DNA of 64,000 bases, from positions 45,311-109,310 of the forward strand of contig CALEDJ010000015.1 in the NCBI GenBank assembly GCA_937951485.1, in the 5' to 3' direction. The notes under the pieces are model-generated. The model saw only the letters and a list, made by a program, of their open reading frames with translations. It ran no database searches and was not told the origin of the DNA. Both the position numbers and the translations under genes were made by a program. Source of the DNA: an uncultured bacterium (lineage in GTDB: Bacteria > Hydrogenedentota > Hydrogenedentia > Hydrogenedentales > CAILVY01). Position 1 is the first letter of the stretch. Each line of letters begins with the position of its first letter. Below, piece after piece: positions 5,068 to 55,154 of the stretch.

Positions 5068-5070
5068 ACC

Positions 5071-7930: not shown

Positions 7931-7932
7931 CC

Positions 7933-8265: not shown

Positions 8266-8306
8266 CCGTTGCCGGGGGGCGCCGCGCATGATTTGGGAGA
8301 CTGGAG

Positions 8307-8945: not shown

Positions 8946-9026
8946 GCAAGATTGTGCAGCGGCGGTCAGGCACGAGAAGGGCGTTTCCCAACCAGCCAGG
9001 ACAGCAACAAAGGAGACGGGGCTTTT

Positions 9027-24475: not shown

Positions 24476-24838
24476 CGTCTCATTCCTCCTTCAGTCTGAA
24501 ATTCCTGCCCTTAATGATCACACTTAAATCGCACGACTTTATTCTACTACCTCACGCCCTTCCATTTCAAGAATGATTATACATGAAAAGTGACCAAAAG
24601 TCCAGTACTTTTTCTGCCCCCGGGGAATAAATCCGTAAATTGTTCCAAGTTGCGTTCTGTCAAGCATTTATGCAAGATAGTCCAAGGAAGATGGAACACC
24701 AAACGGCACTTATGGCGGGCCTTTTTCGTCCCGCAAGAGATAAAATACACTCCTCCATCAGGTTGTCCGGCATAACAAATTCGGCCATAATCCTATTCCG
24801 AAAAGGTGTTGCGTCAGGCGCGGTCCCCGTGGGAAGGG

Positions 24839-27133
24839 ATGTTAAGTTTGACCATGAAAATACTTTCAAATGCCGACAGACGCGCGCATGATTCCCATGT
24901 CGTTGAAAACGGTATTTCTCGTCGCGTTCAGGGCCTTTTATGTATTGCCTTAATCACAGGATTAACAGTTCGTATTATTTATCTGCTTCACTCGTTTTAC
25001 TGTCCTGATTTTGCCTCCCCTGTCCTCGACCCGCGCCTGAACGATTATTGGGCACGCGCACTGGTGACGGGCAACTGGACGCCGCCGGTCTATGCGGACG
25101 ACCCGGAAATCTGCACGACGCCGTATGGCCGTCCTCCGGGTTATCCGTACTTGCTCGCGGTGGTTTATGCGCTGTTCGATGGATCCTATCTTGCGCCGCG
25201 CCTGGCACAGTTGGGATTGGGGCTGGTAAACGTCGCGCTCGCATTTGCATTGGGTCGGCGTATTTTCGGCAATGCGGCGGGCATTGTCGCAGCGGGGATA
25301 CTGGCGGTGTATTGGCCGCTGGTTTATTTTGAAATGGAATTGAACTATCCGGTGGTGGTTGTATTCCTGACATTGTTGACCCTGCTTTGCTGCCAGCGGT
25401 GGGTTCATCATCCAACGTTGCGAATGGCCGCCGGGATTGGTGCGATCATTGGCTGTTTCGCGCTGATCCGGCCCAACGTGCTGCTGTCAGGAATTACACT
25501 GGCCGCATGGATGATCTGGGCGGGCCGGCGTCGCGCCATGCCGTGGCGCAAAGCGTTGATCAACGCGTTCGCGCTGCTGGCGGCGTGCGGGGCGCTGATC
25601 ACGCCTGCCGTTGTGCGCAATTACGTGGTATCCAAAGAGTGGGTGCTTATTTCATATTATGACGGCGTAAACATTTATATCGGCAACAATCCGCAGTCCC
25701 GTGGCGATTCGGCGCGGATTCCTGATTTGCGCGACATCTCCGGCCTGGATGCCTGGGACTGTTTCAGTTATCCCATGCTTGTTCGAAATCTTGGGCGAAA
25801 GATGGATGGCCCGGATTTCGGTTTCTCAGATGCTTCGCGGTATTTCCGCCGGCGCGCCGCCGCGTTCGTCTGGGAAGAACCATTTACCGCACTACGGCTG
25901 ACGGTCCGAAAGGCGCTCTTATTCTGGGGGCCAATAGAGGTCTCCGACAGCAAGGTAATGGAATTGGACCGCCAAGCCAGCCCATTGCTTCGTTGGCTTC
26001 CCGGATTTCCGTCGGTATTCGCGGCGGCCTTGCTCGGTGCGCTTCTGTGGAGACGTAACGCACGACGTTCCGGCAGCCAAGAACCAGACCGCACACGGGA
26101 TGCTTTCCTGGAATGCGTGGCGTTCCTGGTGCTGTTCGCCGTGTCCTATTTTTTCTCCATCCTGCCCTTCTTCATTGCCGGACGTTACCGGATTCCAGTA
26201 GTGCCGATTCTGGCGGTCTTCGCCGGATATGGGCTGGTTGCGACGGGCGCGGCCTGGCGTACGGGAGACTATCGGCGTGGCGCGCTTTCGTCGGCGTTGT
26301 TGGCGCTGCTCTACATCGCATGCGCCACGCCGTTTGCGTCGTATTTGCCGGATGCCGCGACCTGGCATCTGCGGCGGGCGCAGGCGCACATGCAGGCTCA
26401 CCGTGACGGAGAAGCCCTGCAGGAACTGGCATCTGCGCTGCGCGAAGACGATATGAATATAGAGGCGCATGTGTTGACGGGATTTCTATTGGACCGCGCT
26501 GGAGATATCGAGGCCGCGATAGCCCAGTACCGTCGAGCGCTGGAGATTGACCCTGACCATGTCACGGCCTGCAACAACCTCGGTCATGCCCTGGCGCGGC
26601 AGGGCGAAGCGGATGAGGCGGAGGCCCTATACCGGCGCGCGCTGCAATGGAACCCCTGGCATGCGCTGGCCTGCAATAACCTGGGGTGGTTGTCAATGGA
26701 GCATGGGCGGCTGGAAGAAGCCGTCGGTGCGTTTACCCAGGAAATCACGGCAGAACCGAACCATGCGCGGGGACACTACCACTTGGGAATCGCGCTGGCG
26801 CGGCAGGGAAAATTTGAGTTGTCCGCCGAACATCTGGAGGCGGCCCTGACGCGTGCGCCCGGGAATCCGGATATCCTCACCGACCTTGGCCTGGTGCGGG
26901 CGCGGCTGGGACAACCGGAGCAGGCCGAGCGGCGCTTCCTGGAGGCGCTGCAGCGGCGGCCTGATTTTGCCCGAGCACATTTCAATCTCGGCAATCTCTA
27001 CGGCGACCTGGGCCGCTATGAGGACGCGGCCCGGCATTTCGAAAAGACGCTTGCCATTGATCCCGATTTTGAACAGGCGCGCCAGCACCTCGAACAGGTT
27101 CGGGCGGCCATGGAAAAACCCCCGAACGATTGA
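24839..27133 (+). CDS. GT-C family (PMT/ArnT-like, GT39-type) membrane glycosyltransferase with C-terminal TPR repeats (TMTC-like architecture)
   Basis: N-terminal polytopic domain with the conserved YGRPPGYPYLLA motif and about 11 TM segments. The C-terminal roughly 330 aa hold at least 8 TPR units (AHxNLGxxLxxQG...). The start could be 24839 or 24854. Confidence 0.65.
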   Translation: MLSLTMKILSNADRRAHDSHVVENGISRRVQGLLCIALITGLTVRIIYLLHSFYCPDFASPVLDPRLNDYWARALVTGNWTPPVYADDPEICTTPYGRPPGYPYLLAVVYALFDGSYLAPRLAQLGLGLVNVALAFALGRRIFGNAAGIVAAGILAVYWPLVYFEMELNYPVVVVFLTLLTLLCCQRWVHHPTLRMAAGIGAIIGCFALIRPNVLLSGITLAAWMIWAGRRRAMPWRKALINAFALLAACGALITPAVVRNYVVSKEWVLISYYDGVNIYIGNNPQSRGDSARIPDLRDISGLDAWDCFSYPMLVRNLGRKMDGPDFGFSDASRYFRRRAAAFVWEEPFTALRLTVRKALLFWGPIEVSDSKVMELDRQASPLLRWLPGFPSVFAAALLGALLWRRNARRSGSQEPDRTRDAFLECVAFLVLFAVSYFFSILPFFIAGRYRIPVVPILAVFAGYGLVATGAAWRTGDYRRGALSSALLALLYIACATPFASYLPDAATWHLRRAQAHMQAHRDGEALQELASALREDDMNIEAHVLTGFLLDRAGDIEAAIAQYRRALEIDPDHVTACNNLGHALARQGEADEAEALYRRALQWNPWHALACNNLGWLSMEHGRLEEAVGAFTQEITAEPNHARGHYHLGIALARQGKFELSAEHLEAALTRAPGNPDILTDLGLVRARLGQPEQAERRFLEALQRRPDFARAHFNLGNLYGDLGRYEDAARHFEKTLAIDPDFEQARQHLEQVRAAMEKPPND

Positions 27134-27188
27134 CCCAAACCCCTTGTCCCCTGCTATGCTTGAGCAGGACTGACGCAGGGAAAAGCCG

Positions 27189-29894
27189 GTGAAGGAAGCG
27201 ATACAGGAAAATACTGCGCCCGGGCGCGCCGTTGACGGGGAAAGCGCTTCAGGTGAAGAATGGCCGCGCCGTGAATGGATTTGCCTGACGGCGATTCTGG
27301 CGCTGGGGCTTTTCCTGCGGCTATGGTATTTCTCCGAACTGGTGCACGCCCCGGATTTCCGTGCGCTCCGCCAGGATCTGGATGTGCAGGATTATCAGGC
27401 GCGCGCCATGCTTTCGGGCGACTGGACGGTCCGCGACGGGGAAAACGACCCGGAAATCCCCACCACCCCCTATTACCGCCCCCCGGGCTATCCCTATTTC
27501 CTGGCCATTGTTTATTGGTTCAGCAACGGCAGTTATCTGGCGCCGCGCCTGGTGCATTTCGCGCTCGGTCTCACCACCGCCACGCTGTTGTATCTTCTGG
27601 GCAGGGCTGTTTTCAGCGGCGGCGTCGGTTTGATCGCCGCATTCCTGTACGCTACGTACTGGGGCTGCATTTACTACGAAGGCGAGGTCAATGACCCGGC
27701 GATATTTCTTTTTCTCGTCCCCTCTCTCATGCTTGTCCTGCTGCGATGGCTTCGGGCTTTTGCCGCTCGATGGGCGGCGCTTGCCGGTCTGATTATCGGC
27801 TGCTACGCCATCATGCGACCCAACATTCTCCTGTTTGGGCCGGTTCTTGCCGCATGGATGCTGTATGTCGCCTGGCGGCGACGGCAATTGCGGCGCGCGG
27901 CAAGCAGTTGGATCGCACTGGCGTTGTTGGCCGCCGCCCCCATTTTGCCGGTCACGGCGCGCAATTACGTGGTATCCGGTGAATTTGTGCCAATCTCTAC
28001 ATATTTCGGGCAGAATTTCCTTATCGGCAATGGAGAGGATTCCAACGGCTACACCTCCTGGACGCCTTACCTGCAGGAATTGGAAGGCACAGGGAACTGG
28101 TCGGTGTGGGTGTACAACAACGTGGTGCGTGGTCTGGGCAGGGAAGTGGGCAATGAAAACCTGACCCACTCGGAGGCGTCGCGCATCTTCTTCTGGAAGA
28201 CCGTGGATTTCATTCGCGAAAACAAGATGCGCACGCTGAAACTGGCGATAAAAAAAGCCGCATACTTCTGGCACCCGCTGGAAATCACCGAAAACAAGGT
28301 CGTCCAACACGAAAAGTGGCACTATGCGCCACTGAAATACCTTCCGGGTTTTCCCTGGACCATGGCGTTGTTTCTGGGCGGCAGCCTGTTTCTCACATGG
28401 GACTGGCGGCGCGGCCGCCTGCCGGGGCATTCATCATTGGATGCAACGACGGTGAAGCGCATCATCTTCATCGTCTATGCGTTTGCATTCACTTATTTCG
28501 CCTCCTTCATTCCGTTTTTCGTCAATGCCCGGTCAAGGGCGCCTTTATATGGCCTGATGCTGCTGATTGGCGCGTATGGCGTGAAGCGGCTGTGGGATTT
28601 TGCGGTTGCCCGACAATACTGCCGGATGGCGCTGGGAGCGGCTCTTTTCGGCGGAATGTTCCTGATTTCTTCGGTGCCGCTGGCGCCGTATACTCCTGAC
28701 CATGATCGCTGGCATTATGACCGCGCCGATTCATACCTTCGGGAAGGCAAAGTGGAAGAAGCGATTGCGGAGGCGCGGGCGATGATGGCGCTGCCGGAAC
28801 GGCCGATGTACTACATGCCGCACCGTCTGGGGGTGGCGTTTGTTCGATTGGGTCGCTACGAAGAGGCCGTCCCGCTGTTGCGTGCGGCGCTCAGTCCGGA
28901 ACCGGAGGAACAGGATCCCCGATACCGGCAGGATGTGCACTATCTCTTGGGGGTGGCGCTGGCAAGCACAAACCGGGACGCGGAGGCCGTGGAAGCCTAT
29001 GAAGCGGCGCTGTGGCTGAATCCGGATGACGCGCGGACGCATAACAATCTGGGGGTGATCCGCGAGAAGCAGGGCGATTTCGCCGCAGCGGAACATCACT
29101 ACCGCGAGGCGATCCGGTCTTCGCGGGAGTTTGCCCTGGCCTACAGCAATCTTGGGGACCTGTTGGGGCGAACGGCCCGCCTGGACGAAGCGATTGCGCA
29201 TCTGCGGCGCGCGGCGGAACTGGAGCCGGACAACGCGGACTACCATTACAATCTGGCGCGACATCTTGCGATGGCGGGGCGTAACGAAGAGGCTTCGGCG
29301 CACTATGAAACTGCAATTGCACTTCGACCGGAAGACCCGCGCCCCTGCAACAACCTCGGCTGGATGGCGCAGGAAGCGGGAGACCTTGCCGAGGCGGAGC
29401 GGCGCTACCGGCAGGCGGTGGAGGCGTCGCCGACTTTTACGCTGGGGTGGATCAATCTTATGCACCTGATGGTGCAGGAGGGGCGCTTGTCCGATGCCGG
29501 ACAGGTCTGCGACATCGCGATCGCCGAGGACCCGCGGAATCACGGATTAAGGTTGTCGTTTGCGGAAGTACTGGCCAGATATGATTACCAGTCAGAAGCC
29601 ATTGCGGAGTACCGCAAGGCACTGGCTTCGGAACCTGAGAATCCGGTGATCATGAACAATCTCGCCATTCTTCTGGTAGCAACAGGGCAGTGGCGGGAAG
29701 CCGAAGCCCTGTATCGCCGGGCGATCGAGTCTGATCCTGCGTACGCACCGGCGCACTGTAATCTGGGGGTACTGCTTCAGGCGCAGGGGCTCACGGAAGA
29801 CGCGATGCGGTATTTTCGCCAGGCCCTCGCGATTGATCCTGACAATGCGTTTGCGCAAAAGCGGCTGGCGACCGGAAAAGAGGAGAAGCGGTAA
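27189..29894 (+). CDS. Paralogous GT-C(PMT-like)+TPR membrane glycosyltransferase
   Basis: Same motif (YYRPPGYPYFLA) and architecture as the upstream gene, with a longer TPR tail. GTG start. Confidence 0.65.
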   Translation: MKEAIQENTAPGRAVDGESASGEEWPRREWICLTAILALGLFLRLWYFSELVHAPDFRALRQDLDVQDYQARAMLSGDWTVRDGENDPEIPTTPYYRPPGYPYFLAIVYWFSNGSYLAPRLVHFALGLTTATLLYLLGRAVFSGGVGLIAAFLYATYWGCIYYEGEVNDPAIFLFLVPSLMLVLLRWLRAFAARWAALAGLIIGCYAIMRPNILLFGPVLAAWMLYVAWRRRQLRRAASSWIALALLAAAPILPVTARNYVVSGEFVPISTYFGQNFLIGNGEDSNGYTSWTPYLQELEGTGNWSVWVYNNVVRGLGREVGNENLTHSEASRIFFWKTVDFIRENKMRTLKLAIKKAAYFWHPLEITENKVVQHEKWHYAPLKYLPGFPWTMALFLGGSLFLTWDWRRGRLPGHSSLDATTVKRIIFIVYAFAFTYFASFIPFFVNARSRAPLYGLMLLIGAYGVKRLWDFAVARQYCRMALGAALFGGMFLISSVPLAPYTPDHDRWHYDRADSYLREGKVEEAIAEARAMMALPERPMYYMPHRLGVAFVRLGRYEEAVPLLRAALSPEPEEQDPRYRQDVHYLLGVALASTNRDAEAVEAYEAALWLNPDDARTHNNLGVIREKQGDFAAAEHHYREAIRSSREFALAYSNLGDLLGRTARLDEAIAHLRRAAELEPDNADYHYNLARHLAMAGRNEEASAHYETAIALRPEDPRPCNNLGWMAQEAGDLAEAERRYRQAVEASPTFTLGWINLMHLMVQEGRLSDAGQVCDIAIAEDPRNHGLRLSFAEVLARYDYQSEAIAEYRKALASEPENPVIMNNLAILLVATGQWREAEALYRRAIESDPAYAPAHCNLGVLLQAQGLTEDAMRYFRQALAIDPDNAFAQKRLATGKEEKR

Positions 29895-31885: not shown

Positions 31886-33022
31886 ATGCGCATCCTGATT
31901 CCCACAATGGACTATCCGCCCGCGGCGGGCGGCATCGCCAGCGTAACGCTGGAACTTTCGCGGGAACTGGCCGCCATGGGTCATGTGGTGACCATTGTGG
32001 CGCCCCCAGCCCCTGACATGGCCGCGTTTGATCGGGGGGAACCGGCGCACGTCATCCGATTCGCGGGACGCCGGCGCGGGTGCTTCTGCTTCCTTCCTTT
32101 GTGCTGGAAGACCTGGCGGCTCGCGGGGCGGGCGGACCTGATTCTCGCCATCAACGCGACATATGGCGGGATCATCGCGCGCGGCGGGCGCCTCTTGTTC
32201 GGCCCGCCGTACCTTGTGTTCGCCCATGCCGATGAATGCCTCCGGTACAGGCGCGCGCCAGTCGTGCGGACGTTGCTGCGGTCGGTGTATCGCCGCGCGA
32301 ACACCGTCGTCGCCCTCAGTCGGCATGCGCGGCGCAACCTGGAATTGGTCGGCGTGCCTGAACGCGACATTGCGCTGGTCCTGCCCGGCGCACGGCTGCC
32401 GGAACCGCTCCCGGCAGCGGCGATCCATGCTGTCCGGGAGCGGTTCGATATCTGCGACAGCAACATGATCCTCGCCGTTGGCCGTTTCCTCCCCCACAAG
32501 GGCCATCTCACGCTGGTCAAGGCGATGCCGCAGGTGCTGGAGCGTCATCCGAACACGCATCTTGTCATGGCGGGCCAAGGACCCTGCCTGGGAGCGTGTC
32601 TGGACAAGGCGCGGGCGCTGGGCATTGAAGGGCAGGTGCATTGTACCGGCCATGTGGATGACGCGACGCTGGAAGCCCTCTACCAGGCGTGTGATGTATT
32701 TGCCCTGCCCATTGAGGATGCGCAGGAACAGGGGTTGGAACTGGTATTCACCGAAGCCCACGCCCGGGGAAAACCTGTCGTGGCGGGGCGGGTCGCCGGT
32801 GTTCCAGACCTCGTCATTGACGGACAAACCGGGTTCCTCGTGGAACCACAGAACCCGGACGCGCTGGCGGACCACATTGCCGCGATCCTCGATGACCCTC
32901 AACTGGCAAAGCGCCTGGGCGAGGCGGGTCGCCGCCGCATCGAAGAAGAACTCAACTGGCGGGCGTTTGCGGAAAAAGTGATCGCGGCCGCATCGCGGAA
33001 AGGCGGGGCTATCGCGCCGTGA
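31886..33022 (+). CDS. GT4-family (GT-B fold) glycosyltransferase
   Basis: N-terminal [21 protein letters not shown] and the C-terminal [30 protein letters not shown] motif, equivalent to the E-X7-E motif of GT4 enzymes. Confidence 0.8.
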
Positions 33023-36000
33023 TCATTCCCGAGTAGGCCTCCTTGGGGCCGCAATCGAAGAGGTAGTTGTCCTCCCTGCCGAACCAGCCGGTGGCGGCGC
33101 GGTAATTGTCCCCCCCGTAAACATTCGTTTTCGGTCCCCAGCCCCATTTCTCGCTGGTGATATGGCCGTCGCACCAGAGCACATTGGCGCGGCCGTTGTG
33201 GCGGAAATGGATGGTGGGGGTGGATAGACCCCATTCAGTGTTTCCTTGCGGGTGGTCGGGCGTGACGAAATACGGCGGCTCGATGAAACTGTACTCGATG
33301 ACGTAGCCGTCCTGCGCCAGCGCGGCATCGGCAAACATCATGGTCTCGGAGGGTTTTCGGACGTGGCTGTCCAGCGTGGTGCGTCGTGCCGATTCCGGCA
33401 GTTCAAATAGATAGGCGGTGCCGCCGATATAGGCCATGTTGTAGCCGTAACCGCCGCCGCCCGACTCAAAAGCGTTGGGCGCTTCGCCCACGCGCTTCAT
33501 TTCGGTGAAGGCGGGGCACTCCTTGACCCGGCCGTCCGGCAGGTACTCGGCGAGCGGGCCGCTGTTGGGGTCGAAGGGGCTGTTGCCGTTGGCCTCCTTG
33601 CGCACGCCGTGCCAGCGGATACGCCCGCCGAAACCGTCGAGGATATCCGGCGCGGCGGGAACGTAAAGCCCCTTGTTTTCCCCGGCGTACATGGTGTTGG
33701 CCAGGAACAACTGGCGCAGGTTGTTGAGGCATTGCACGCGGACGCCCTGCTGCCGTGCGCGCGACAGCGCGGGAAGGAGCAGTGCGGCGAGGATCGCCAC
33801 AATGGCGATCACCACCAGCAGTTCGATGAGGGTGAATCCGCCGGTCGCCTTACTCCGCGTCCGGAGGCCGTCGCGTGCGGCGCGCCGACGGGGGTGCATG
33901 CGTCTCATCCCCGCCGCGCCCAGCAGAAAAACCACCGAGAACAGGCAACGCACGGCGGGAACCGGCACATAATCGGCGATGGACAGGGCCTGTTCACCCA
34001 AGAACACCGTCTTACCGGCGTCGCCGTATGCGGTCAGGTAAAACACATCATCACTGTGCGCGGCCTCGACGGTGATCGAAGCGCGGCCAAAGACGGTGCG
34101 CGCCTGGAATCCTGGAAGCGTATCGTCGGCGTCGCCGGAAACGAAGGTCGCGCCCTCGATGTCGAGCGTGACGAATGATCCGTCGCGCACGATGTTGCCG
34201 TAATAATCGCGGATGACGCTGGACGTCAGCGTCACGGAGACCGGCGCGAAGCCTTCCGGGCGGCTCATGGTCCACGCGACCGGCGATTCCGGCGGGCCGG
34301 GCAGGAAGCGATACGTCAACTCGCCGTATGCGGAACCGGTGACCGACACCGCGGCAAAGACGGCTGTGCCGGATCGCGTTGACTGCGCCGCAAAGACAAT
34401 CCGCCCATCCTGGGCGGCAACCTGGACGCCCGGCGCGCCGGGGTCCGCGTCCGGCGTTGCAATGTGTCCCAGTGTCGTGTGCACGGTAAACAGCGCGCCG
34501 TCGGTCACGGGCATGGCCGCGTGATCAAGAATAATGTCGCTCTCGACAACGACCGACGGGAACACATCCACCGGGGCTTCCTCCGGCGGGGTGGCGTGCA
34601 GGAGGATGTCGCCCTGCGGGCCAAAGGGATTCCCCGTGTCGCCTGCCCCGGCAGTGGACGCCAGAATGAAAAGCCCGGGCGCGTCGGACCGGAACGTAAC
34701 CAAATTGGCGGTGTCGTTCACGCTGATTTGCGTAATGCCCTGCAGGGTCCAGCCGCTTCCCGTGTGCCGCCACGGTTGCAGTCCCGCTTCGTCCAGCCCC
34801 GCGATTTCCGCCGACGTGTATCGGATGGTGATTTCCATGGGCTGAATCTGCGCCGCGCTGAAACTCGATTCGCTGCAAAGAATCCCCCGGACGGTCCCGC
34901 TCTTGATGAGGTCGGGGTTGGGCAACGGTGTGACAGGCGCCACGGGCGCGACGATGTCCAGCGTGGCATTGCGCGGCAAGCCGGGGTCCCTGTCGCCGCT
35001 CGAATAGAAGCGCAGGCGCGTGCCACGATCATCCTCGACCGTGCCCAGCAGCGTTCCTGCCGGGCTGCCGCCGAATTCCGCCGGAATCGCGAGCGCGACG
35101 ACCGTGCTCTCGCGCCGGAGCGGGTCCGTGCCCGCGACGCGGATTTCGTAATCATCCAGAATGCCGTCGCCGTCGGTGTCCACATCGCGCGCGATCGCCG
35201 CGACCGCGTTGATTTCCGGCGATACCGTACCCAAGGCGCCCGATTCTTTGTGAATGAATGACGTGAACCGGATACAGGAAAACTGCGTCAGGTTGGCGGG
35301 ATTGCCGGCGGCGTCCACCGCCCAGGCGATATCGAAGGCATCGCCGCCGCCCGAGCGCGGCGTCAGCCCCACGGTAAACGGATCGTCCGGGCGCATGTAA
35401 TTATCGAGGTATTCCGGCAGCGCGGGCGACATGTCGCCGTAGCCCCAATTGAATTCCTCGTGATCGTTCGCGGGGTTGGCGTCGAAGAGGTTGGGGTTGG
35501 TGACGACGCCGGAGAGAATATACGGATCGTCCGTGCTGTTGCCTTGGCCGGCCGGTTCGGTGAGCCACGGGAAGGGATCATAGGCGAAATTGCGGCTGCC
35601 GGGAATCAGATACCACGGGCCATCGGGGTGATTGCTGATTTCGATAAGTGCCGGTTCCTGCCATTTCCGCCGGGGATTGCCGCCGACCCAGAAGGCGTTC
35701 CCATAGACGATGAAATCCAGGCCCATCGGATTGTCGGGGTGGTCCAGCACCGGCGTATTGAATTTCAGGGTCAGCGTGCCGCCCTGACCGCCGAGCGACA
35801 CCACCGACGCATTGTCCGGCGCGATGACGCCCCCACCGCTGGGCTTGCCCAGCGCCTTTGCCGGATCGGAGAACGGCCCCGTGGGCGGGTTCGGCCCCTG
35901 CTGAAAATGGACCACCTCGTCCGCCCAGGGATCGTCCGCATGGGAGACGCCGGCGGCAATGGCCAGCAGCACAAGGCACGCCGCAAGCGGCCCGAATGCG

Positions 36001-36047
36001 GCGTTTGCCAGGAAGCCCGAAAAGGGGGTTCCGGGCGAATCAATCAC
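33009..36047 (-). CDS. Long composite ORF with no stop between two modules. The N-terminal roughly 700 aa is a secreted protein with a signal peptide and a PEP-CTERM-like tail (VPVP, TM segment, RRMHPRRR). The C-terminal 299 aa is a prepilin-type N-terminal cleavage/methylation H-X9-DG (DUF1559) pilin-like protein
   Basis: Signal peptide [23 protein letters not shown] from a probable GTG start near 36047. An Asp-rich calcium-binding-like loop ([12 protein letters not shown]). The tail is ..[45 protein letters not shown], then [25 protein letters not shown] (class III signal), then [16 protein letters not shown] (H-X9-DG). An internal ATG at 33908 or 33899 would start the pilin-like module as a separate gene. 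Confidence 0.5.
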
Positions 36048-36695
36048 GAAAATCTCATTCGAGACTTTCGTGATTGGGTCTTTTTCCGGGCGGCGTGCCG
36101 CCCGGGCGTCCAGGCAAGCCTGGACGCATGAAAGCGGTGGCAAGCCGGCGCAGTGCAAAAAAGCGTTACCCCCTCGTGACACCGCTCCCGCGCTGTCACA
36201 TAACAGCGAAGAAAAACACGGAACCTGACACAGGAAAATGCGAATGTTTCTGATCATCGTGCGCATAAACGCCGCCCTCGGGCGTTTTTGGGCGCACCCG
36301 GCAACAGGGAGCAGCGGCGGGAATCATCAGGCGATCATCGCAATGTCAATGATGCATGATCTTTGCCGCCGCCTTCCCACGAAGGCGCGCGCCACCTCGA
36401 GTTACACACTGACGGCACGACACGCGCCGCCCCCATCGGCAGGTCTTCGGACTTGCGGGCACACCGCGCGATCGCGTCTCTCGACGCGCCGCCCGGCACT
36501 CTACTGGACGCCGCTTCCCAGCCTCCGGGGTGGAGGCCAGTGCTTCGTGGCGCCGTTCGTTCCCGCTTACCGCTGCGGGGCAGTTCCGGACTTCCACCGG
36601 ATTCCCTCTTAGCCGGAAACGCCAGGCATGCGTTCCCGGGCCGATAGTGATTTCAGTATAGGCCATCGCGAGTGAAAAAGCAATCGCTGCCGGAT

Positions 36696-37241
36696 TCACT
36701 TGGGCTGATACCTGAACTTCTGCGCTCCGATGGTGGCCTGGGCCATCAGCCCGGATTCATCCATGACGAACACCATGACACCCTCGGCGTATTTGGCGGC
36801 GGCGGTGACCCCGGACCTGTTTGCCACGGCAGAGGTGACTGCATCGAAAGCAAGGGTGCCGCTTTTGAGGCGATCAATCGCGTCCTTTGTTTCGAAGCAG
36901 ATGATCATGGTGTAGGCCTGTCCGCCGATTTGCCCTCCAAATGTCACCTGGGTTACGTCGCAATATCCCACAATCGCGCCCAATTCATAAAGCACGCCCC
37001 TGCCATAGGTGCCGCCGGCAATCATGCCCCCCTTGCCAACCCTGGGAAACACGGCGTAACCCCGGGCGTCACGGAGTATCGCGTCAATGCCCGGCGCTTT
37101 GAATTCGGCGAACGACAACACATCCTGCGCTGCTCTTTCGAGGCGTTCCTTGCCGGCCCGGGTATCGGGCGCCGTCGCGCACGCCGTCAACATGATTGCG
37201 AGCATCGCCGGAGCGACAACTGAAATGAACCGTCGGTGCAT
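36696..37241 (-). CDS. Lipoprotein with Ysc84/SYLF-like (DUF500) lipid-binding domain
   Basis: Lipobox LTAC after the signal peptide MHRRFISVVAPAMLAIM. Gly-rich GGMIAGGTYGRGVL...FGGQIGGQAY pattern typical of SYLF domains. AGGAAG RBS. Confidence 0.55.
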   Translation of the reverse strand: MHRRFISVVAPAMLAIMLTACATAPDTRAGKERLERAAQDVLSFAEFKAPGIDAILRDARGYAVFPRVGKGGMIAGGTYGRGVLYELGAIVGYCDVTQVTFGGQIGGQAYTMIICFETKDAIDRLKSGTLAFDAVTSAVANRSGVTAAAKYAEGVMVFVMDESGLMAQATIGAQKFRYQPK

Positions 37242-37431: not shown

Positions 37432-39291
37432 TCACGTCGTACCGTCATTTGGGATTCGTGAATACCGTTTCAGAAGGCGCACCGCGCCGGTTATTGCGAC
37501 GATAACGGCAAGACATAACAAGGCACACAGCCCACCTGCCGGGATTGCCTCGACCACAGAGAGCAGGGTGTGGTCTGTCTGGATCACAGAGAATGCGTCG
37601 CTGATAACACAGAAGTAAATACCGGTATCGGTGTAATCCAGTTCTTCGATGGTAAAGACGGGCGCGTTGGGACCGACTGGGATTGCAATTTTCGCCGGAT
37701 CTTCCTTGAACCATTCGTACTGGGGCGGACCGGCAGCGCCCGCGACCTCAACCATGAAGGTATGCGAAGAACCGGCTTCCGCATAAATCACGGGAGGCGG
37801 CTGACGGACAATGTGCAGATCGCCCCGGATGATCGCCACGGTATGCGAGTCGTCGGGGGCCATTACATTGCCGACAAGGTCCACCGCGTCGGACACTGTT
37901 ACAGTGGCGATGCCTTCGTCCGCGGCTTCAACAGGGCGGTCGATCGAGACCTCATAGGCGCGGTCGTTCACCCAGAGACCGTCGCCCCCTCCGTCGGTCG
38001 GGCTTGCGGTGATGACATGGCCCGCCCTGGCGGTGACGGCGACTGTCGGAAACTTCGTTTCATTCATGTCCTTGCTGAAGACCAGCGTCATGCGCGGGCG
38101 CGATCCCAGCGGCGCCGCCGCATGGTCAACATCAAACGAGACCAACACCGGCGGTACGGCATCAATGACATAGATTTCACTGGTGAAATTGCCATTGCCG
38201 GAGCCGGGGCCGCCGAGCATGTTCTGATTATAACTGCGGTCGCGAATGGAATCGTTGTCTTCCAGTTTTACGGCAAGGGTCCCGGCGCCTGTGACGTTGT
38301 GAACGCCAATTTCGTACTCCCTGTTCGTGATGCGCCGCACCGCCACCGGCGAGGAAAAAGAGACTTCGCCCACCGTCTTGACGGCAAAATCCCCCGCGTC
38401 CACGCCGGTCACCCCTTCGCTGAAACGCGCGATGAAACGCACCGTGCCGGCGGGGGCGGGGCTGGGATCGGACCGCTGAATCGAAACCACCAGGGGCGGT
38501 TTCCGGTCCCCCCACAGCACGGCGTTGATATACAGGCGCTGCACATGAACGTTGGACAATGTGGACGCGCCCGCCGTGTTGCCGGTGTGATGAAAGGAGA
38601 CAACCCGGCCCGCACCGAATTCCCGCACCGCCACCGCGTGGTTGCCCCAGCCGTCGGTCATCAGCGGAACAGCCGGCCAAGGGTCGAAGGACAGTATCAA
38701 GCCTTCCTTGCGTCCGCTGCGAAATACGAATGCATCCGGCAAATTGCGCAGCACAGGGTGGTCGGCCTGGTCTGGAATTTTTGTGACGGTTATATCGGTA
38801 ACGCCCCAACCGCGCATCCTGTCAATGACGGTCAGGTCCCACATCGCCGAAGACAGACCCCCGAATTGCGGCGGAATCGCCATTTGCGCCGCATTGTTTT
38901 CAGACCCTACATATGCGCCGCCCTCATCGCGCACATATTGCACCAACCGCGTCACCGCGGAAACAGGCAGGATATAGGAATTCGGTCCGCCGCCATTCAG
39001 ATGCACCACAGCGTCGAAACTGTCGGGCATGGGGTTGAAACCCGTCCAGCGGCCCTGTGTGTTGGCGCTGTAGGTCACCGAAATGCCGGCGTTCGTCATC
39101 GCACGGACCAGCGCTTTGGTATTGGCATTCAGCATGTCTGGGACCGGTGTTCCCTCGTCGTCGTCCCAGAGCAACAGCACATTCGGTCCGGCAATGGCGG
39201 CGTTCGCCACACACACTGTCAACAGCAGAAACAGAGCATAACGGCGTGGTCTGGCAGATGGTATCATCGGAAGGATTCGCAACGGCATCAT
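37432..39291 (-). CDS. Secreted protein: ThuA-like (class I glutamine-amidotransferase-like) domain, Ig-like domains and a C-terminal TM anchor
   Basis: Signal peptide RRYALFLLLTVCVANAAIA. ThuA-like region (VVHLNGGG...GRVVSFHHTGN...LYINAVLWG). C-terminal AGGLCALLCLAVIVAITGAVRLLKRYSR. The start overlaps the upstream sulfatase-like stop (ATGA). Confidence 0.55.
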   Translation of the reverse strand: MMPLRILPMIPSARPRRYALFLLLTVCVANAAIAGPNVLLLWDDDEGTPVPDMLNANTKALVRAMTNAGISVTYSANTQGRWTGFNPMPDSFDAVVHLNGGGPNSYILPVSAVTRLVQYVRDEGGAYVGSENNAAQMAIPPQFGGLSSAMWDLTVIDRMRGWGVTDITVTKIPDQADHPVLRNLPDAFVFRSGRKEGLILSFDPWPAVPLMTDGWGNHAVAVREFGAGRVVSFHHTGNTAGASTLSNVHVQRLYINAVLWGDRKPPLVVSIQRSDPSPAPAGTVRFIARFSEGVTGVDAGDFAVKTVGEVSFSSPVAVRRITNREYEIGVHNVTGAGTLAVKLEDNDSIRDRSYNQNMLGGPGSGNGNFTSEIYVIDAVPPVLVSFDVDHAAAPLGSRPRMTLVFSKDMNETKFPTVAVTARAGHVITASPTDGGGDGLWVNDRAYEVSIDRPVEAADEGIATVTVSDAVDLVGNVMAPDDSHTVAIIRGDLHIVRQPPPVIYAEAGSSHTFMVEVAGAAGPPQYEWFKEDPAKIAIPVGPNAPVFTIEELDYTDTGIYFCVISDAFSVIQTDHTLLSVVEAIPAGGLCALLCLAVIVAITGAVRLLKRYSRIPNDGTT

Positions 39292-41162
39292 TCGACATAT
39301 CCCAGGGCGCGCAATTGCTCGAAACGGGCATTGATATCTTCGTCGGAGGGCGCTTCGGGGATTTCTTCTCCTTGCTCGAATCGGATAAGCCGGAATCCGT
39401 TCATGACGGCCCAGTGGTTATCGGTGCCGGGTTTCAGCGTGATTTCAAAAATACCGTCGTCGGTTTCATAAATGCCGGCATCCACAAAAAGATATGTGTG
39501 ATGGCCCACGGCACAATCATCTTTTTTGACAAGCGAAAAGTCCTCGTCGCCGCGCAGACGCACTGCAAACGCGGAAGCAGGATGATCGAGATAATCGCTC
39601 ATACAAAACATTCTGATTTGGACGCGATAGCGAGCCGGAGGCACCTCATAGCGGAAAGTCAGCGGCGGGGGGGTCTCCAGCCAGGCGCGGGTCCATAAAC
39701 GCCGCCAATCGGTGTCGTATGCCCACTTATCATCACGCAGGTAGTTGTTGAAATCGGCGTTTCGATGGATTGCCAGCGCTTCCTGGGGAAACGCATTGGT
39801 GGCAATGGTGTCATGAATAAACAAAACCACGACGCGTTCCGGGAGCGCGCGATAGGCCTCCCATTTCGGCAGAATCTCCCGTTCGACATATCTTTTCAAC
39901 GTTGCGGCTGCGTCCGGATATTCTTGAATAACGTTAGGGCGTGTCGGAAATACATCCGGCACAGGCCACAAGTATTCGCGTTCATTATGCATATCCCATT
40001 CGTATTTGAAATCCCTGCTCCGGAGAATCAGGCCGGGCTTGCCGTCGTAACCGCCCGCGACATACTTTGATAAGGCATACGGCCGACCTTCAGATTTCCC
40101 TTCCTGGCGCAACAGCGGTAAGATGCTCCTCCCGTCAAAGGCCGCGTTCGTTTCAAGATGCAGCAGGTCCACCAGTGTGGGCACAATATCCACATTCTCT
40201 GTGATATCGTTGACTACCCTGCCCGGGGGAACGCCCGGCCCGGCGAGGATGAAAGGCACACGCATCAGCAGGTCATAACTGGCGGGGACATGTCCCCATC
40301 GGATGCCGTCTTCGCCCAGAAGGTCTCCGTGGTCCGACCCGATAACGATGACGGCGTCATCGAACAGGCCCAGCGTCTCCAGTTTCCAGAACAACAAGCC
40401 TAACTGATGGTCGCTGTAGAGAATGCTTCCGTCATACAGCCCCTCCAGGTGCCGCCGCTCTTCCGGCGAAAAGCGACATTCGTACTTCGACACAGGCGTG
40501 CCATTCTGGATTTGTTCCGAAGTGAAGTCCGGGTCAATCCACAGGTCATAGGGCGCGTCCAGAATATGCGGAAAATGGGTGTCAAGGGTATGAATATAAA
40601 GGAAAAAAGGTTGCCGGGGGGTATTCGTCAGCCATTGAAATATGCGCCGGTTCAGCGTGGCGAAACTGGCGTAATATGCGCGATCGCGTTCATCAGGGCG
40701 CTCGAAAATCGCTTCGTCAAACGCCTGCCACAATCGGCTGCGCGGCGTGAACCACGGATGCGATGTGATCATGGCCGTGTGATAGCCGTTCGCACGGAAT
40801 ATCTCCGGAGCGAGCAACTCGTCCGGTGGACATTTCCGCGCCACCTCGGTGCCTTCCACCGATTCATGCACCATTACGGGGAAGTATCTGCCGGTCATGT
40901 ACGACGGCACGGAGACGGTCGTCCACAATCCCTGCGTGAAATGATGCGCCGCGCGCACACCCCTCGCCGCCAGGGCGTCCATGTTCGGCGAGGTGCGCCG
41001 CGCATACCCGTGGCACGAGAGGCTGTCCGCGCGAAGCGCGTCCAGCACGATCCAGATGACATTCGGTCGTTTGTCTCCGGCATCCGGCGTTCCTTGCGCC
41101 CGGGCCGCAAGGCTCCCGCAGAACACGGAAAAGAGAACTATCGCCACCATAAACTGTCGCAT
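39288..41162 (-). CDS. Sulfatase-like hydrolase/transferase (alkaline-phosphatase superfamily), secreted
   Basis: Signal peptide MRQFMVAIVLFSVFCGSLAARAQG. The N-terminal metal-binding block NVIWIVLDALRADSL is followed by a degenerate signature TVSVPSYMTGR in place of C-x-P-x-R, so it may not be a true formylglycine sulfatase. AAGGAG RBS before the ATG at 41162. Confidence 0.7.
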   Translation of the reverse strand: MRQFMVAIVLFSVFCGSLAARAQGTPDAGDKRPNVIWIVLDALRADSLSCHGYARRTSPNMDALAARGVRAAHHFTQGLWTTVSVPSYMTGRYFPVMVHESVEGTEVARKCPPDELLAPEIFRANGYHTAMITSHPWFTPRSRLWQAFDEAIFERPDERDRAYYASFATLNRRIFQWLTNTPRQPFFLYIHTLDTHFPHILDAPYDLWIDPDFTSEQIQNGTPVSKYECRFSPEERRHLEGLYDGSILYSDHQLGLLFWKLETLGLFDDAVIVIGSDHGDLLGEDGIRWGHVPASYDLLMRVPFILAGPGVPPGRVVNDITENVDIVPTLVDLLHLETNAAFDGRSILPLLRQEGKSEGRPYALSKYVAGGYDGKPGLILRSRDFKYEWDMHNEREYLWPVPDVFPTRPNVIQEYPDAAATLKRYVEREILPKWEAYRALPERVVVLFIHDTIATNAFPQEALAIHRNADFNNYLRDDKWAYDTDWRRLWTRAWLETPPPLTFRYEVPPARYRVQIRMFCMSDYLDHPASAFAVRLRGDEDFSLVKKDDCAVGHHTYLFVDAGIYETDDGIFEITLKPGTDNHWAVMNGFRLIRFEQGEEIPEAPSDEDINARFEQLRALGYVE

Positions 41163-41330
41163 CCGGCATACTCCTTGCCCGGCCAATGACATACATCCGC
41201 GAAACACTCGTGAAACATCATGCTTCAACGCTCTTTATACAATAATTCGCCACGGATTTCATGCTTTCGACGGTCTCGCGGAGGAGGAAAGTGCCAGAGG
41301 AACGGCGCCTGCGCAACAGGAAGAAGAAAC

Positions 41331-41407
41331 TGGCGCGCCTGGTGCGACTCGAACGCACTACCTACGGCTTAGAAGGCCGTTGCTCTATCCGGATGAGCTA
41401 CAGGCGC
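41331..41407 (-). tRNA. tRNA-Arg (anticodon TCT) with encoded CCA
   Basis: Reverse complement folds as GCGCCTG-TA-GCTC-ATCCGGATA-GAGC-A-ACGGC-CTTCTAA-GCCGT-AGGTA-GTGCG-TTCGAGT-CGCAC-CAGGCGC-G-CCA. All four stems are perfect, with a 7-nt anticodon loop and a TTCGAGT T-loop. Confidence 0.85.
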
Positions 41408-53630: not shown

Positions 53631-53735
53631 GATCAGCCCGCAAAGTTTATTCTACGCGATACTGCGGCATGTCTTTTCAGTTGATGGATTATAATCGCCG
53701 GGGCGCCGTTGAAGAAACCCGTGGAGGGACATGGA

Positions 53736-55154
53736 ATGCGACACCGGCGGATATCACGGAGAAATTGGATGCAGGGCATGGCCGGGATGATGGCCGGGAT
53801 GATGGCCGGGACGGCGCTGAGCCGCGCCGGCGGGGAAGAAAATCCTGGGCAAAGACCGAACCTGCTGATTGTCCTTACGGATGACCAGCATTTCCAGGCG
53901 ATGGGCTGCATGGGCAACCCGATCATCCAGACGCCGCAGATGGATGCGCTCGCGGCGCAAGGGGCGCTGTTCGCAAACGCCTTTGTGACCACGCCGATCT
54001 GCTGCACAAGCCGCGCCAGCATCCTCACGGGCATGTACGCCTGGAGCAACGGCGTCCACGATTTTCAGACGCCCCTTCCCCCGGACCTCCTCGAAATCAG
54101 TTATCCCGTGATGCTGCGGCGGCACGGGTATTACACCGGCTTTGTTGGCAAGTACGGCGTGGGGACAACGCCGCCGGCAGATGCCTTTGATTTCTTTTTC
54201 GGACTTCCCGGAAATGGACGCTATATCCAGGAGATCAACGGCGAGACGCAGCACATGACCGGCCTGCTTGCCGACCAGGCCGTTGCATTCCTGGAATCTT
54301 GTCCCGATAACGCGCCGTTCTGTCTGTCGCTGAGCACGCGTGCGCCCCACGCCGAGGACTACGACCCGCGCCCCTTCCCGCCGGACCCCGCCTTGGAACA
54401 TCTCTACTGCGATGTCGAAATCCCCGCGCCTGAACTGGTGAAACCGGAGTATTACGAGGCGCTGCCGCCGTTTCTCAAGGATTCCGAGGGCCGCAAGCGC
54501 TGGGAGAACAATTTCAACACGCCGGAACGCTATCAGGAGTCGGTGCGGGATTATTACCGGATGATCACCGGCGTGGACCATGCCATCGGCCGCCTCCGGG
54601 AAGTCCTGCGCCGGCGCGGCATGGACCACAACACCGTCATTCTTTTCACTTCCGACAACGGTTTCCTTCTCGGCGAGCGCGGCCTGTCCGACAAATGGTA
54701 CGCCTACGAGTCCTCCATCCGTGTGCCGTTCATTCTCTATGATCCCCGGCTGCCTGAAGCGCAACGGGGGCGGCGCGTCGAGGCCATGGCGCTGAACATT
54801 GACATCGCGCCGACCCTCCTCGACCTCGCGGGGATCGAAGCGCCGTCCGCAATGCAGGGGCGGAGCCTTTTGCCCTGGCTGCGCGGTGAAACGCCCCCCT
54901 GGCGGGAACACTGGTTCTTCGAGCACCGCTTCGACAGCCCCCACCACAAGATTCCGATGAGCGAGGGCGTGCGCAGCCCCCGCTGGAAGTATTTCCGGTG
55001 GATCAACGTCGAAGGAACCCCGGAAGAACTCTACGACCTGGAACAGGACCCGCTCGAAATCCGCAATCTCGCGGGAAATCCCGATTCCGCGGCCACCCTC
55101 GCCGAAATGCGCCTCTTGACGGAAGCATACCGGGAAACGCTGCCGAAGCGGTGA
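53736..55154 (+). CDS. Sulfatase (formylglycine-type, alkaline-phosphatase superfamily) with twin-arginine signal
   Basis: Tat-like MRHRRISRRNWMQGMAGMMAG. NLLIVLTDDQH and the active-site region TTPICCTSRASILTGMYAW (C-C-T-S-R variant of C-x-P-x-R). GGAGGG RBS. Confidence 0.85.
   Translation: MRHRRISRRNWMQGMAGMMAGMMAGTALSRAGGEENPGQRPNLLIVLTDDQHFQAMGCMGNPIIQTPQMDALAAQGALFANAFVTTPICCTSRASILTGMYAWSNGVHDFQTPLPPDLLEISYPVMLRRHGYYTGFVGKYGVGTTPPADAFDFFFGLPGNGRYIQEINGETQHMTGLLADQAVAFLESCPDNAPFCLSLSTRAPHAEDYDPRPFPPDPALEHLYCDVEIPAPELVKPEYYEALPPFLKDSEGRKRWENNFNTPERYQESVRDYYRMITGVDHAIGRLREVLRRRGMDHNTVILFTSDNGFLLGERGLSDKWYAYESSIRVPFILYDPRLPEAQRGRRVEAMALNIDIAPTLLDLAGIEAPSAMQGRSLLPWLRGETPPWREHWFFEHRFDSPHHKIPMSEGVRSPRWKYFRWINVEGTPEELYDLEQDPLEIRNLAGNPDSAATLAEMRLLTEAYRETLPKR

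Follow-up and report, generated by a model that had tools for sequence, protein, structure and literature searches.

A BtuH-like secreted module and a DUF1559 pseudopilin share one open reading frame behind a cobalamin riboswitch in Candidatus Hydrogenedentota

So-called prepilins of the DUF1559/H-X9-DG family are numerous in Planctomycetes, Verrucomicrobia and relatives, and no assigned function for this family was found in the literature searched. In type IV pilins in general, the residues G-1, F+1 and E+5 at the processing site matter for cleavage, N-methylation and filament assembly, and a free Phe1 is needed. Cobalamin is a scarce and traded cofactor, and work on BtuH-type binding proteins has, to our knowledge, been confined to gut Bacteroidetes. 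The H-domain of BtuG1 and BtuH2 both bind B12 (PMC8941943; PMC10404256), and the B12-contacting residues of BtuH2 were reported to be Q333, N399, F401, H476, Y510, W511, W577 and L578 (PMC8941943).

The window analysed in the present study is a stretch of 64,000 nucleotides from an uncultured Candidatus Hydrogenedentota bacterium. The list of its open reading frames and the translation displayed a single frame of 1085 codons at 33009..36266 (-), in which residues are numbered from ATG 36266. As an earlier, sequence-only reading of this DNA had stated, two modules lie in one stop-free frame: no stop codon separates a secreted module, closing with YVPVP, a transmembrane (TM) stretch and an Arg-rich cluster, from a complete prepilin motif with an H-X9-DG body. 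In our view this gene probably encodes a B12-repressed BtuH-like receptor fused to a DUF1559 pseudopilin, which would be cut by prepilin peptidase, both parts serving jointly in cobalamin capture.

Upstream of the gene, on the sense strand and 155 nt before ATG 36266, a cobalamin (B12) riboswitch aptamer was located at 36421..36660 (-), where the Rfam covariance model RF00174 was matched over its full length (1-189) with 97.3 bits and E 9e-25 (gathering threshold 31.5). The riboswitch is conserved in L084 and L085, two orthologous loci from independent assemblies with the same gene neighbourhood as the window and identities of 87% and 81%. RF00174 was confirmed by Rfam in 11 of the 12 related loci tested, and nhmmer found a riboswitch upstream in 21 of 24 fused, 32 of 36 split and five of six module-1-only loci; counted over 68 related loci, about 60 carried it upstream and in the same orientation. 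The behaviour of other B12-uptake genes suggests, by analogy, that plentiful B12 should switch the gene off. Both this riboswitch and the BtuH-type domain described below had been overlooked in the sequence-only reading, and they change the subject of the finding.

Promoter-like hexamers (TTGCTT-N17-TATACT, 36655..36683 (-)), which directly follow the stop codon of the Ysc84-like gene upstream and border on the riboswitch, were read from the three-locus DNA alignment; they are conserved in L085 and may represent the promoter, and a consensus promoter scan gave no call at this site. The leader search yielded no terminator-like site. Immediately before ATG 36266 stands a hairpin, AAACGCC-CGAGGGC-GGCGTTT (36264..36287 (-)), which is identical in the window, L084 and L085 and bears a Shine-Dalgarno-like GAGG in its loop. 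Conservation of this GAGG hairpin in front of the ATG suggests translational control, and the hairpin is a possible candidate for the expression platform and start site. It is followed by a structured segment of about 190 nt (36048..36263 (-)) with five predicted hairpins, which is present in the window and L084, absent from L085 and not repeated elsewhere. The two perfect GC hairpins reported earlier belong to this run (36127-36106 and 36105-36086), as does a predicted hairpin at 36075-36042, which buries GTG 36047. Compared with L084, substitutions in the segment number 16/16/15 on codon positions 1/2/3, and this spread, together with the density of hairpins, supports the earlier view that the first 73 codons are leader and not coding sequence; the segment is probably 5' leader. 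Candidates for the start codon are ATG 36266 and GTG 36047, and in L085 the ATG equivalent to 36266 is the sole start giving a basic n-region of the signal peptide.

The secreted module begins with a Sec-type signal peptide (residues 74-110, 35937..36047 (-)), whose hydrophobic core is followed by an AxA-like site and which ends SHA/DD; the mature N-terminus is conserved throughout the family as [ED]DPWAD and reads DDPWADE after the cleavage point in the window protein. The adjoining globular domain (residues 111-360, 35187..35936 (-)), the predicted B12-binding head, is homologous in sequence and fold to the BtuG1 H-domain and to the C-terminal globular domain of BtuH2, at 25-28% identity. 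Equivalents of the BtuH2 contacts N399, F401, Y510 and L578 are present in the head, W511 and W577 are replaced, and Q333 and H476 fall outside the aligned blocks; N190 and Y276 of the head are invariant in the family. From these correspondences we infer that the head binds B12. A bacterial thrombospondin type-3 (calcium-binding) repeat follows at 35118..35180 (-), matched just under the cut-off in the window protein (PF18884, E 4e-5); the model also matches 38 of 55 family members. Next comes a stalk of several Ig-like beta-sandwich domains (residues ~390-762, 33981..35099 (-)), for which a high-confidence all-beta model was predicted and which matches Ig domains of invasin, intimin and S-layer proteins. 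The window also encodes an acetyl-CoA synthase/CO dehydrogenase cluster, and as this is corrinoid-dependent, the cell needs corrinoids.

The tail of the module (33909..33971 (-)), recognised from the sequence and a predicted helix, consists of Y766-V-P-V-P770 (33971-33957) and the helix TM1 (33956-33909), the hydrophobic stretch covering residues 771-786. Stand-alone homologues end in the same [YF]xPxP motif, TM helix and basic tail, and TM1 is retained in 73 of 78 fused relatives. This tail had been labelled PEP-CTERM-like, which describes a resemblance only: the tail recalls such signals in its Pro motif, TM helix and basic cluster, and, in favour of the label, two other secreted proteins of these loci close with the same kind of tail. 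However, neither PEP-CTERM (TIGR02595) nor other CTERM models matched the window tail at E <= 10, and the tail is C-terminal only in stand-alone homologues, whereas 299 residues lie beyond TM1 in the window protein. Five scanned homologue tails gave two sub-threshold matches (Loki-CTERM, E 0.14; CoaP_CTERM, E 0.0011, 18.6 bits versus 35), and IPTL-CTERM matched weakly once, in one of 55 members.

Between TM1 and the pilin part lies a basic linker (residues 787-810, 33837..33908 (-)) with a net charge of +8, which is disordered in the predicted model, is predicted to be cytoplasmic and occupies the place of a prepilin leader. In the 78 fused relatives the linkers comprise 8-88 aa with a median net charge of +5. 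The class III prepilin motif G810/F811-T-L-I-E815 with its long pilin alpha-1 helix (33681..33839 (-)) was matched by PF07963 (N_methyl, 26.6 bits versus a cut-off of 21.2) and TIGR02532 (25 bits versus 16.3). E815 is followed by LLVVIAIV, and the helix gave profile matches to N-terminal helices of solved pilins and is a helix in the predicted model. The motif had thus been recognised properly in the sequence-only reading, but cleavage had been placed one residue too early, the canonical site being GG/FTL and not G/GFTL. In contrast to the usual basic leader of about 5-30 aa, the motif is not N-terminal but begins at residue 810 (737 if counted from GTG 36047). All 41 fused relatives compared retain F+1 and E+5, and 40 of them G-1, while positions -2 to -12 vary, so that conservation shifts sharply exactly at the cleavage site. 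The DUF1559-type body (33012..33680 (-), stop codon 33011-33009) contains H-X9-DG as H1023 and D1033-G1034 (33209-33159; residues 1020-1035), and TIGR04294, at 23.7 bits over residues 1020-1036, exceeded its cut-off of 19 and confirmed this part of the earlier description. PF07596 (DUF1559) matched only with its first 28 positions, at 19-19.4 bits against a cut-off of 23.3, and matches 38 of 55 family members at E <= 0.01; the body has low confidence in the predicted structure model.

Most relatives, among them other Hydrogenedentota species, encode the two modules as adjacent, co-transcribed genes; the species-representative loci comprised 36 split, 23 fused and six without a pilin. In the 36 split loci the pilin gene starts 4-104 nt past the stop of module 1, overlapping in one (L048), and typically has a separate Met start with a short leader, of about 5-11 aa in those examples that were read. 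Of 120 homologue clusters, 78 have the fused architecture; their linkers fall into 24 different lengths, every one in frame, and the neighbour-joining tree requires at least 13 changes of state. Fusion of this operon pair is hence recurrent, and the repeated joining and separation of the two genes speaks strongly, on genomic grounds, for a joint function of their products.

It could be assumed that the window frame represents two genes whose intervening stop is missing because of a recent frameshift or of an error in sequencing or assembly, and hence an artefact or pseudogene. Split relatives exist, and in some, such as L001, the two frames are offset by one base, so that single-base errors could turn one state into the other; as the genomes are metagenomic drafts, some of the fused and split calls could be errors of this kind. 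However, the alignment with orthologues that the sequence-only reading had proposed revealed no stop between tail and pilin part: L084 and L085 are open as in the window, so that three independently assembled orthologues have a common frame, and not one indel occurs over the 43 codons of tail and linker. Module 1 carries 70/33/204 substitutions on codon positions 1/2/3 and the pilin half 17/8/71, and this third-position bias in both halves, in one frame, indicates that purifying selection acts on both. In addition, the 78 fused clusters, many of them divergent, derive from many sources, and entire clades of the tree are fused. We therefore regard a lost stop as hardly conceivable and reject it; of the two options that had been offered, the genuine fusion is the one supported, and ORF 33009-36266 is a genuine single gene of the Candidatus Hydrogenedentota bacterium.

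Given a genuine fusion, the pilin might also be made alone by internal initiation at ATG 33908 or 33899, with the read-through fusion being incidental. Both of these previously noticed codons lie in frame within the linker, 24 and 21 codons before F811, and the linkers of the relatives P0001 and P0002 contain Met as well. However, Met is present in the linker of only 11 of the 78 fused relatives, so that the pilin cannot generally arise by internal initiation; a Shine-Dalgarno-like sequence is absent before either ATG, and the full-length fusion is produced regardless, since the upstream frame is stop-free. Such an origin of the pilin is consequently very improbable. A two-pass membrane protein that is never cut at the prepilin site, its pilin helix acting as a second anchor only, is unlikely but more difficult to dismiss, because its hairpin topology would be self-consistent without cleavage, because no prepilin peptidase gene was seen among about 30 window ORFs scanned, and because we know of no described precedent for prepilin peptidase cleavage behind a membrane-spanning 'leader' of 730-800 residues. 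Against this stands the essentially invariant G-1, F+1 and E+5 in fused lineages at 42-55% identity, whereas the residues just upstream are free to vary. Finally, module 1 could serve as a general adhesin or as a protein of S-layer type, with an exosortase-type enzyme sorting it and cutting it at its Pro-x-Pro tail, and its link to B12 could be purely regulatory. Its stalk indeed resembles the Ig domains of invasin, intimin and S-layer proteins, and the same Pro motif, TM helix and basic tail on a ~360-aa upstream protein of related loci and on a neighbouring 619-aa Ig protein behaves like a sorting signal. However, the tail found no match among sorting-domain models, the head shows homology specifically to the one BtuH-type B12-binding domain known and retains key contacts, and riboswitch control is nearly universal in the family; moreover, B12 binding and sortase-type cleavage can coexist. 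An adhesin with no more than a regulatory tie to B12 seems a rather remote prospect.

For the receptor-pseudopilin fusion we favour, the following course is proposed. The first part would be exported via Sec, exposing the N-terminal BtuH-type head, calcium-binding repeat and Ig-like stalk, and be anchored N-out/C-in by the Pro-x-Pro motif, TM helix and basic tail, while the second, with its canonical class III processing site, would be a DUF1559/H-X9-DG pseudopilin. As the end of the first part and the start of a prepilin are both cytoplasmic, joining them gives a consistent helical hairpin, and the predicted model shows the order TM1, disordered basic loop and long pilin helix. The head would thereby lie outside, TM1 lead to the basic loop inside, and the pilin helix return to a pilin body outside, the loop being part of an exceptionally long prepilin 'leader' of ~735-810 aa. 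Most likely, prepilin peptidase would cut after G810 and free the pseudopilin, yielding the products of the split genes in a 1:1 ratio at the same membrane site, and receptor and pseudopilin would then act jointly in cobalamin capture. Using a machine like those of type II secretion or type IV pili, the pseudopilin might display or export the receptor; alternatively, it might bear it on a filament. Against this course, the scan of about 30 window ORFs revealed, besides no prepilin peptidase, no genes for a pilus or for type II secretion and no exosortase, BtuB or BtuFCD.

These results bear on cobalamin capture by uncultured phyla. They would provide the first link of the DUF1559 pilin family to a nutrient, with one subfamily tied to B12. 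They also place a BtuH-like head outside the Bacteroidetes, in an uncultured phylum, where it stands behind a B12 riboswitch, has another kind of anchor and is without a BtuB partner in its operon. With the fused protein, nature moreover supplies a test case for the action of prepilin peptidase on an internal site that follows a very long, membrane-spanning leader. A further-reaching idea, which we put forward tentatively and consider possible at best, is that Hydrogenedentota use a type IV filament or a type II secretion-like pseudopilus in B12 acquisition. A dedicated DUF1559 pseudopilin would be encoded in cis with the receptor, either within one precursor or by the following gene, be released by the peptidase through an internal cut ~740-810 residues into the precursor, and then display the BtuH-like receptor or shuttle it across the cell envelope. 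If so, this would be the first function for any member of the very large DUF1559/H-X9-DG family, the first natural polyprotein processed by prepilin peptidase, and a route of B12 capture unrelated to BtuB-BtuG.

Among described systems, BtuH2 and the H-domain of BtuG1 (PDB 7BIZ, 8BLW), from lipoproteins that bind B12 on the surface of Bacteroides thetaiotaomicron, are the closest known to the head. Common to both are the phosphate/lower-ligand contacts (N-A-F) and one corrin contact (Tyr), the combination with Ig-like domains and a calcium site, and a gene under a B12 riboswitch (PMC10404256, PMC8941943). However, the domain order is reversed, with the head N-terminal and the Ig stalk C-terminal in the window protein, the anchor consists of a Sec signal and a C-terminal transmembrane tail instead of an N-terminal lipid, two Trp contacts are not conserved, the operon is without btuB, btuG and btuFCD, and the head is fused or adjacent to a pseudopilin in another phylum. 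With the DUF1559/H-X9-DG prepilins of Planctomycetes, Verrucomicrobia and Lentisphaerae (PF07596, TIGR04294) the window protein shares the class III motif, the DUF1559 body and H-X9-DG, but its motif is internal, after ~735-810 residues of Sec signal, ectodomain and TM helix, and its subfamily is tied to a B12 riboswitch. PEP-CTERM/exosortase signals likewise close secreted proteins with a short Pro-containing motif, TM helix and Arg/Lys cluster, and the tail described above also recurs on unrelated proteins of the same loci; its motif, however, is [YF]-x-P-x-P and not P-E-P, no CTERM model matched, the tail is internal in the fused form and no exosortase was seen among the about 30 window ORFs scanned. 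The PilY1/minor-pilin operons of type IVa pili also place a large Sec-exported non-pilin binding protein beside pilin-like proteins, with which it is thought to cooperate (PMC7541494), but there is no sequence relationship, and the window possesses a single pilin partner, a membrane-anchored binding protein and riboswitch control. Modular type IV pilins, such as PilB and PilC of Streptococcus sanguinis, combine pilin and binding module in one polypeptide as well (PMC8179133); however, their extra module is attached on the C-terminal side of the pilin domain and remains part of the mature pilin, whereas the module in the window protein precedes the cleavage site, so that processing would separate it from the pilin.

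The fusion gene was found to occupy a single open frame of 1085 codons on the minus strand, running from ATG 36266 to the stop codon at 33011-33009, and the sequence-only reading was right that no stop separates the secreted module from the prepilin/H-X9-DG module. Counted from this ATG, a signal-peptide-like stretch (residues 74-110, ending SHA/DDPWADE) is followed by a long beta-rich region, a proline-motif tail (Y766-VPVP770) with a hydrophobic stretch at 771-786, a basic segment (787-810), the prepilin motif G810/F811-TLIE815-LLVVIAIV and the H-X9-DG region (1020-1035). In the window protein the models for prepilin methylation (PF07963, TIGR02532) and for H-X9-DG (TIGR04294) scored over their curated cut-offs; PF07596 (DUF1559) stayed under its cut-off there and was matched by 38 of 55 family members. 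The second half is a pseudopilin whose processing motif is intact, and a six-frame scan of the window returned no second prepilin motif. At its 3' end the gene overlaps a convergent GT4 glycosyltransferase gene (31886-33022, plus strand) by 14 nt (33009-33022), an overlap retained in the two closest orthologous loci, L084 and L085.

Two explanations had been offered for the missing stop, namely a loss by sequencing error or frameshift and a genuine fusion. The homologue search yielded many full-length relatives (967-1086 aa, query coverage 95-100%, identity 42-87%), and those with an organism name in the source were annotated as Candidatus Hydrogenedentes. An internal prepilin motif behind the module-1 domain was present in 78 of the 120 homologue clusters listed; in these 78 fused clusters the residue preceding Phe was Gly in 76 and Ala in two, and the spacer from helix to Gly took 24 distinct lengths (8-88 aa, median 15), in frame every time. 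The two closest relatives derive from independent assemblies (ENA ERZ4756918 and SRR13155362), share the gene neighbourhood of the window and have the same uninterrupted frame; no indel interrupts the 43 codons of tail and linker when the three DNA sequences are aligned. Relative to L084, substitutions at the three codon positions number 70/33/204 for module 1 and 17/8/71 for the pilin half, and because of this pattern both halves are considered to be under purifying selection in a single frame. The artefact is contradicted by the open-frame orthologues, the junction free of indels and the 78 fused clusters: the fusion gene is a single conserved frame.

How this frame arose can be retraced in related loci. 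A species-level scan with one genome per species detected 256 related loci, of which 80 were kept, most labelled Hydrogenedentota/Hydrogenedentes and a sizeable minority Nitrospirales/Nitrospiraceae or other. Counting classifiable species-representative loci only, 36 are split, the module-1 gene stopping directly after the transmembrane helix and basic tail with a DUF1559 prepilin gene next, 23 are fused in one frame as in the window, and six carry module 1 without a downstream pilin gene. In split loci the pilin gene lies within 4-104 nt of the module-1 stop (overlapping the stop in L048) and typically begins with a Met codon of its own and a leader that is short, at about 5-11 aa in those examples that were read. 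When a neighbour-joining tree was built from the N-terminal domain, fused loci were scattered among split ones, so that at least 13 changes of state are needed, and the nearest species-level relatives of the window are split. In some split loci the frames of the two genes are one base apart, as in the related locus L001, which reads TAA-C-GGA-TTC, so that switching between the states is mutationally cheap. A few fused or split calls in draft genomes may be erroneous. The two genes form a conserved operon pair that has fused and separated repeatedly. At the L001 junction itself (8140-8182) the module-1 stop TAA occupies 8164-8166 and the Gly-Phe codons of the prepilin motif, GGA-TTC, follow one base later in the +1 frame, which leaves space for no more than a TTG start and a leader of four residues; either the leader is genuinely minimal, or the gene is fused and its assembly is off by one base.

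The AlphaFold2 model was built on the 55-sequence alignment and reached pLDDT >90 across most of model residues 40-690. In it, ORF residues 772-789 form a helix, a disordered stretch comes next, and after that a 50-residue helix of the kind typical of pilins. The hydrophobic segment TM1 was present in 73 of the 78 fused relatives, and their linkers had a median net charge of +5. The model fits a predicted hairpin topology with the ectodomain outside, TM1, the basic loop in the cytoplasm, the pilin helix and the pilin body outside, and the repeated tolerance of fusion would be explained by the tail-anchored C-terminus of module 1 and the prepilin leader both being cytoplasmic. As is established for pilins, cleavage by prepilin peptidase depends on Gly-1, and N-methylation and filament assembly depend on Phe1 and Glu5. 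The alignment contains 41 fused sequences, of which 40 retain G(-1) and all retain F(+1) and E(+5), while positions -2 to -12 were variable except for an Arg/Lys bias. Conservation this strict speaks for continued processing at the internal site, with the basic loop, formally all upstream sequence, probably serving as leader. The pilin could instead be made by separate initiation, and the internal ATGs proposed for this purpose are indeed present in the window at 33908 and 33899; however, since a Met occurs in just 11 of the 78 linkers, this cannot be the general way to the pilin.

The tail had been likened to a PEP-CTERM signal, and the resemblance holds as far as the Pro motif, the transmembrane helix and the basic cluster are concerned, but no PEP-CTERM or other CTERM family of NCBIfam matched the whole protein or six isolated tails; 'sorting-signal-like' denotes resemblance only. 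A [YF]-x-P-x-P motif with transmembrane helix and Arg/Lys closes stand-alone module-1 homologues, and in related loci a similar tail (Pro motif, transmembrane helix, Arg-rich segment) closes a protein of about 360 aa that is encoded upstream. Being common to several proteins of these loci, the tail behaves as a sorting signal would. Cleavage at the tail by a sortase and at G/F by prepilin peptidase would be mutually compatible; no exosortase was seen in the window. The window also encodes a 619-aa secreted Ig-domain protein (37432-39291, minus strand), retained beside the orthologue in L084, which ends in EAIPAGG, a transmembrane helix and RLLKR, a tail in the style of module 1, and the two may share a phylum-specific C-terminal sorting signal.

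The head of module 1 (ORF residues 111-360) is, by profile comparison, homologous to a B12-binding domain. The family profile matched BtuG1 (8blw_B residues 424-659, E 2.9e-20) and BtuH2 (7biz_A residues 267-490, E 2.4e-15), and the same entries were the top Foldseek matches of the head. The BtuH2 domain was shown crystallographically to bind vitamin B12 and occurs as the 'H-domain' of BtuG1 (PMC8941943; PMC10404256). When the BtuH2 contacts listed in PMC8941943 were compared, N399 and F401 aligned with the N-A-F motif of the family (N190-A-F192 in the window, the Asn invariant), Y510 aligned with the invariant Y276 of the window protein, and L578 was retained; W511 and W577 are not conserved in the family, and Q333 and H476 fall outside the aligned blocks. 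No Pfam family covered the head in any of the 55 members, and NCBIfam gave only a weak match to LIC_13355 lipoprotein on the head of the window protein. The head is followed by a thrombospondin type-3 calcium-binding repeat and by several Ig-like beta-sandwich domains, which are invasin/intimin-like.

Aligning the window with the two orthologous loci exposed a strongly conserved non-coding block upstream of the fusion gene. Rfam identified this block, which spans 36421-36660 on the minus strand, as a cobalamin riboswitch of family RF00174, with a score of 97.3 bits (gathering score 31.5) and an E value of 9e-25. It is the sole riboswitch in the window and had not been noticed from the sequence alone. 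With an nhmmer profile iterated from this copy and applied to the related loci, a same-strand riboswitch was found upstream of module 1 in 21 of 24 fused, 32 of 36 split and five of six module-1-only loci; among the negative loci, four have less than 1.1 kb of upstream DNA, and L069, L081, L027 and L031 gave no match despite enough of it. Of 12 loci tested with Rfam, 11 yielded the riboswitch at the gathering score; the remaining one has only 75 nt of DNA upstream of the match. The fusion gene stands behind a bona fide cobalamin riboswitch. Two spacings occur, either directly upstream of module 1 or about 1.1 kb farther with the gene for the ~360-aa protein in between. This uncharacterised secreted protein was found in that position in 28 related loci (L001 4961-6004, L008 3933-5024 and 26 others) and is absent from the window; an assignment as a BtuG-like propeller is not made here, as WD40-type matches were weak and arose with single sequences only, and a 20-sequence profile matched nothing in the PDB.

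Between riboswitch and signal peptide, the two perfect GC hairpins already remarked on were located at 36127-36106 and 36105-36086. A further hairpin, AAACGCC-CGAGGGC-GGCGTTT with GAGG in its loop, precedes ATG 36266 and is identical in three of three orthologues, and in L085 no start other than the equivalent ATG gives a signal peptide with a basic n-region. Some 190 extra nt between ATG 36266 and the signal-peptide core (36048-36263, minus strand) are present in the window and L084 alone; the segment is in frame, shows substitutions without bias over the codon positions (16/16/15) and is predicted to fold into five successive hairpins, with GTG 36047 buried in the last. The substitutions and the hairpins make it more likely that the first 73 codons are 5' leader, as had been suspected, with ATG 36266 and GTG 36047 both candidate start codons. 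The segment may be an extended expression platform or an in-frame insertion; a repeated mobile element is not indicated, since no second copy was found in the window or 85 loci. A consensus scan of 35900-36900 called no promoter or terminator.

A Wood-Ljungdahl carbonyl-branch cluster lies at 1402-9938 (plus strand), comprising genes for the acetyl-CoA synthase/CO dehydrogenase beta subunit, the corrinoid protein delta subunit, the corrinoid reductive activator RACo, a pterin-binding methyltransferase and FolD; this cluster indicates that the organism uses corrinoid-dependent enzymes and so depends on corrinoids. Among about 30 window ORFs, Pfam disclosed no pilus, secretion, sortase or B12-transport genes (including prepilin peptidase, BtuB and BtuFCD). 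A GxGDxK motif scan of all DNA examined found one short A24-type prepilin-peptidase-like ORF, in the related locus L023 only (GGGDVKL; 8291-8932, minus strand). It lies about 4-5 kb away from a module-1/pilin pair of the split type, and its contig bears the label Desulfovibrionaceae, perhaps through a binning error. Other neighbours in the window are two tandem large proteins with a PMT_2 glycosyl/arabinosyl-transferase-like membrane domain and many TPR repeats (24806-29894, plus strand), retained in the same neighbourhood in L084, sulfatase genes at 39288-41228 and 53709-55154, and a tRNA gene (41334-41407, minus strand) adjoining a Schlafen group 3-like DNA/RNA helicase gene (41582-43648, plus strand; PF09848, E 1e-81).

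A mechanism can be proposed in which expression of the fusion gene would rise under B12 scarcity and the head, to judge from its homology, would bind corrinoids. Prepilin peptidase would cut at G810/F811 and give two products in a 1:1 ratio, a receptor anchored by its tail and the mature DUF1559 pseudopilin, and the pseudopilin might help to display, export or carry the receptor via a type II secretion/type IV pilus-like machine. That this constitutes a new, pilus-linked route of vitamin capture is a tentative idea which we regard as possible but less likely than not. In the literature searched, the combination of parts was not found, nor was any paper that connects cobalamin riboswitches to pilins or DUF1559, or B12 uptake to Hydrogenedentes. 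The individual parts are all of known kinds; new are the occurrence outside the Bacteroidetes of a putative BtuH-like receptor, recognised by homology, the coupling of this receptor with a DUF1559 pseudopilin, and the position of a class III processing site about 740-810 residues into the precursor.
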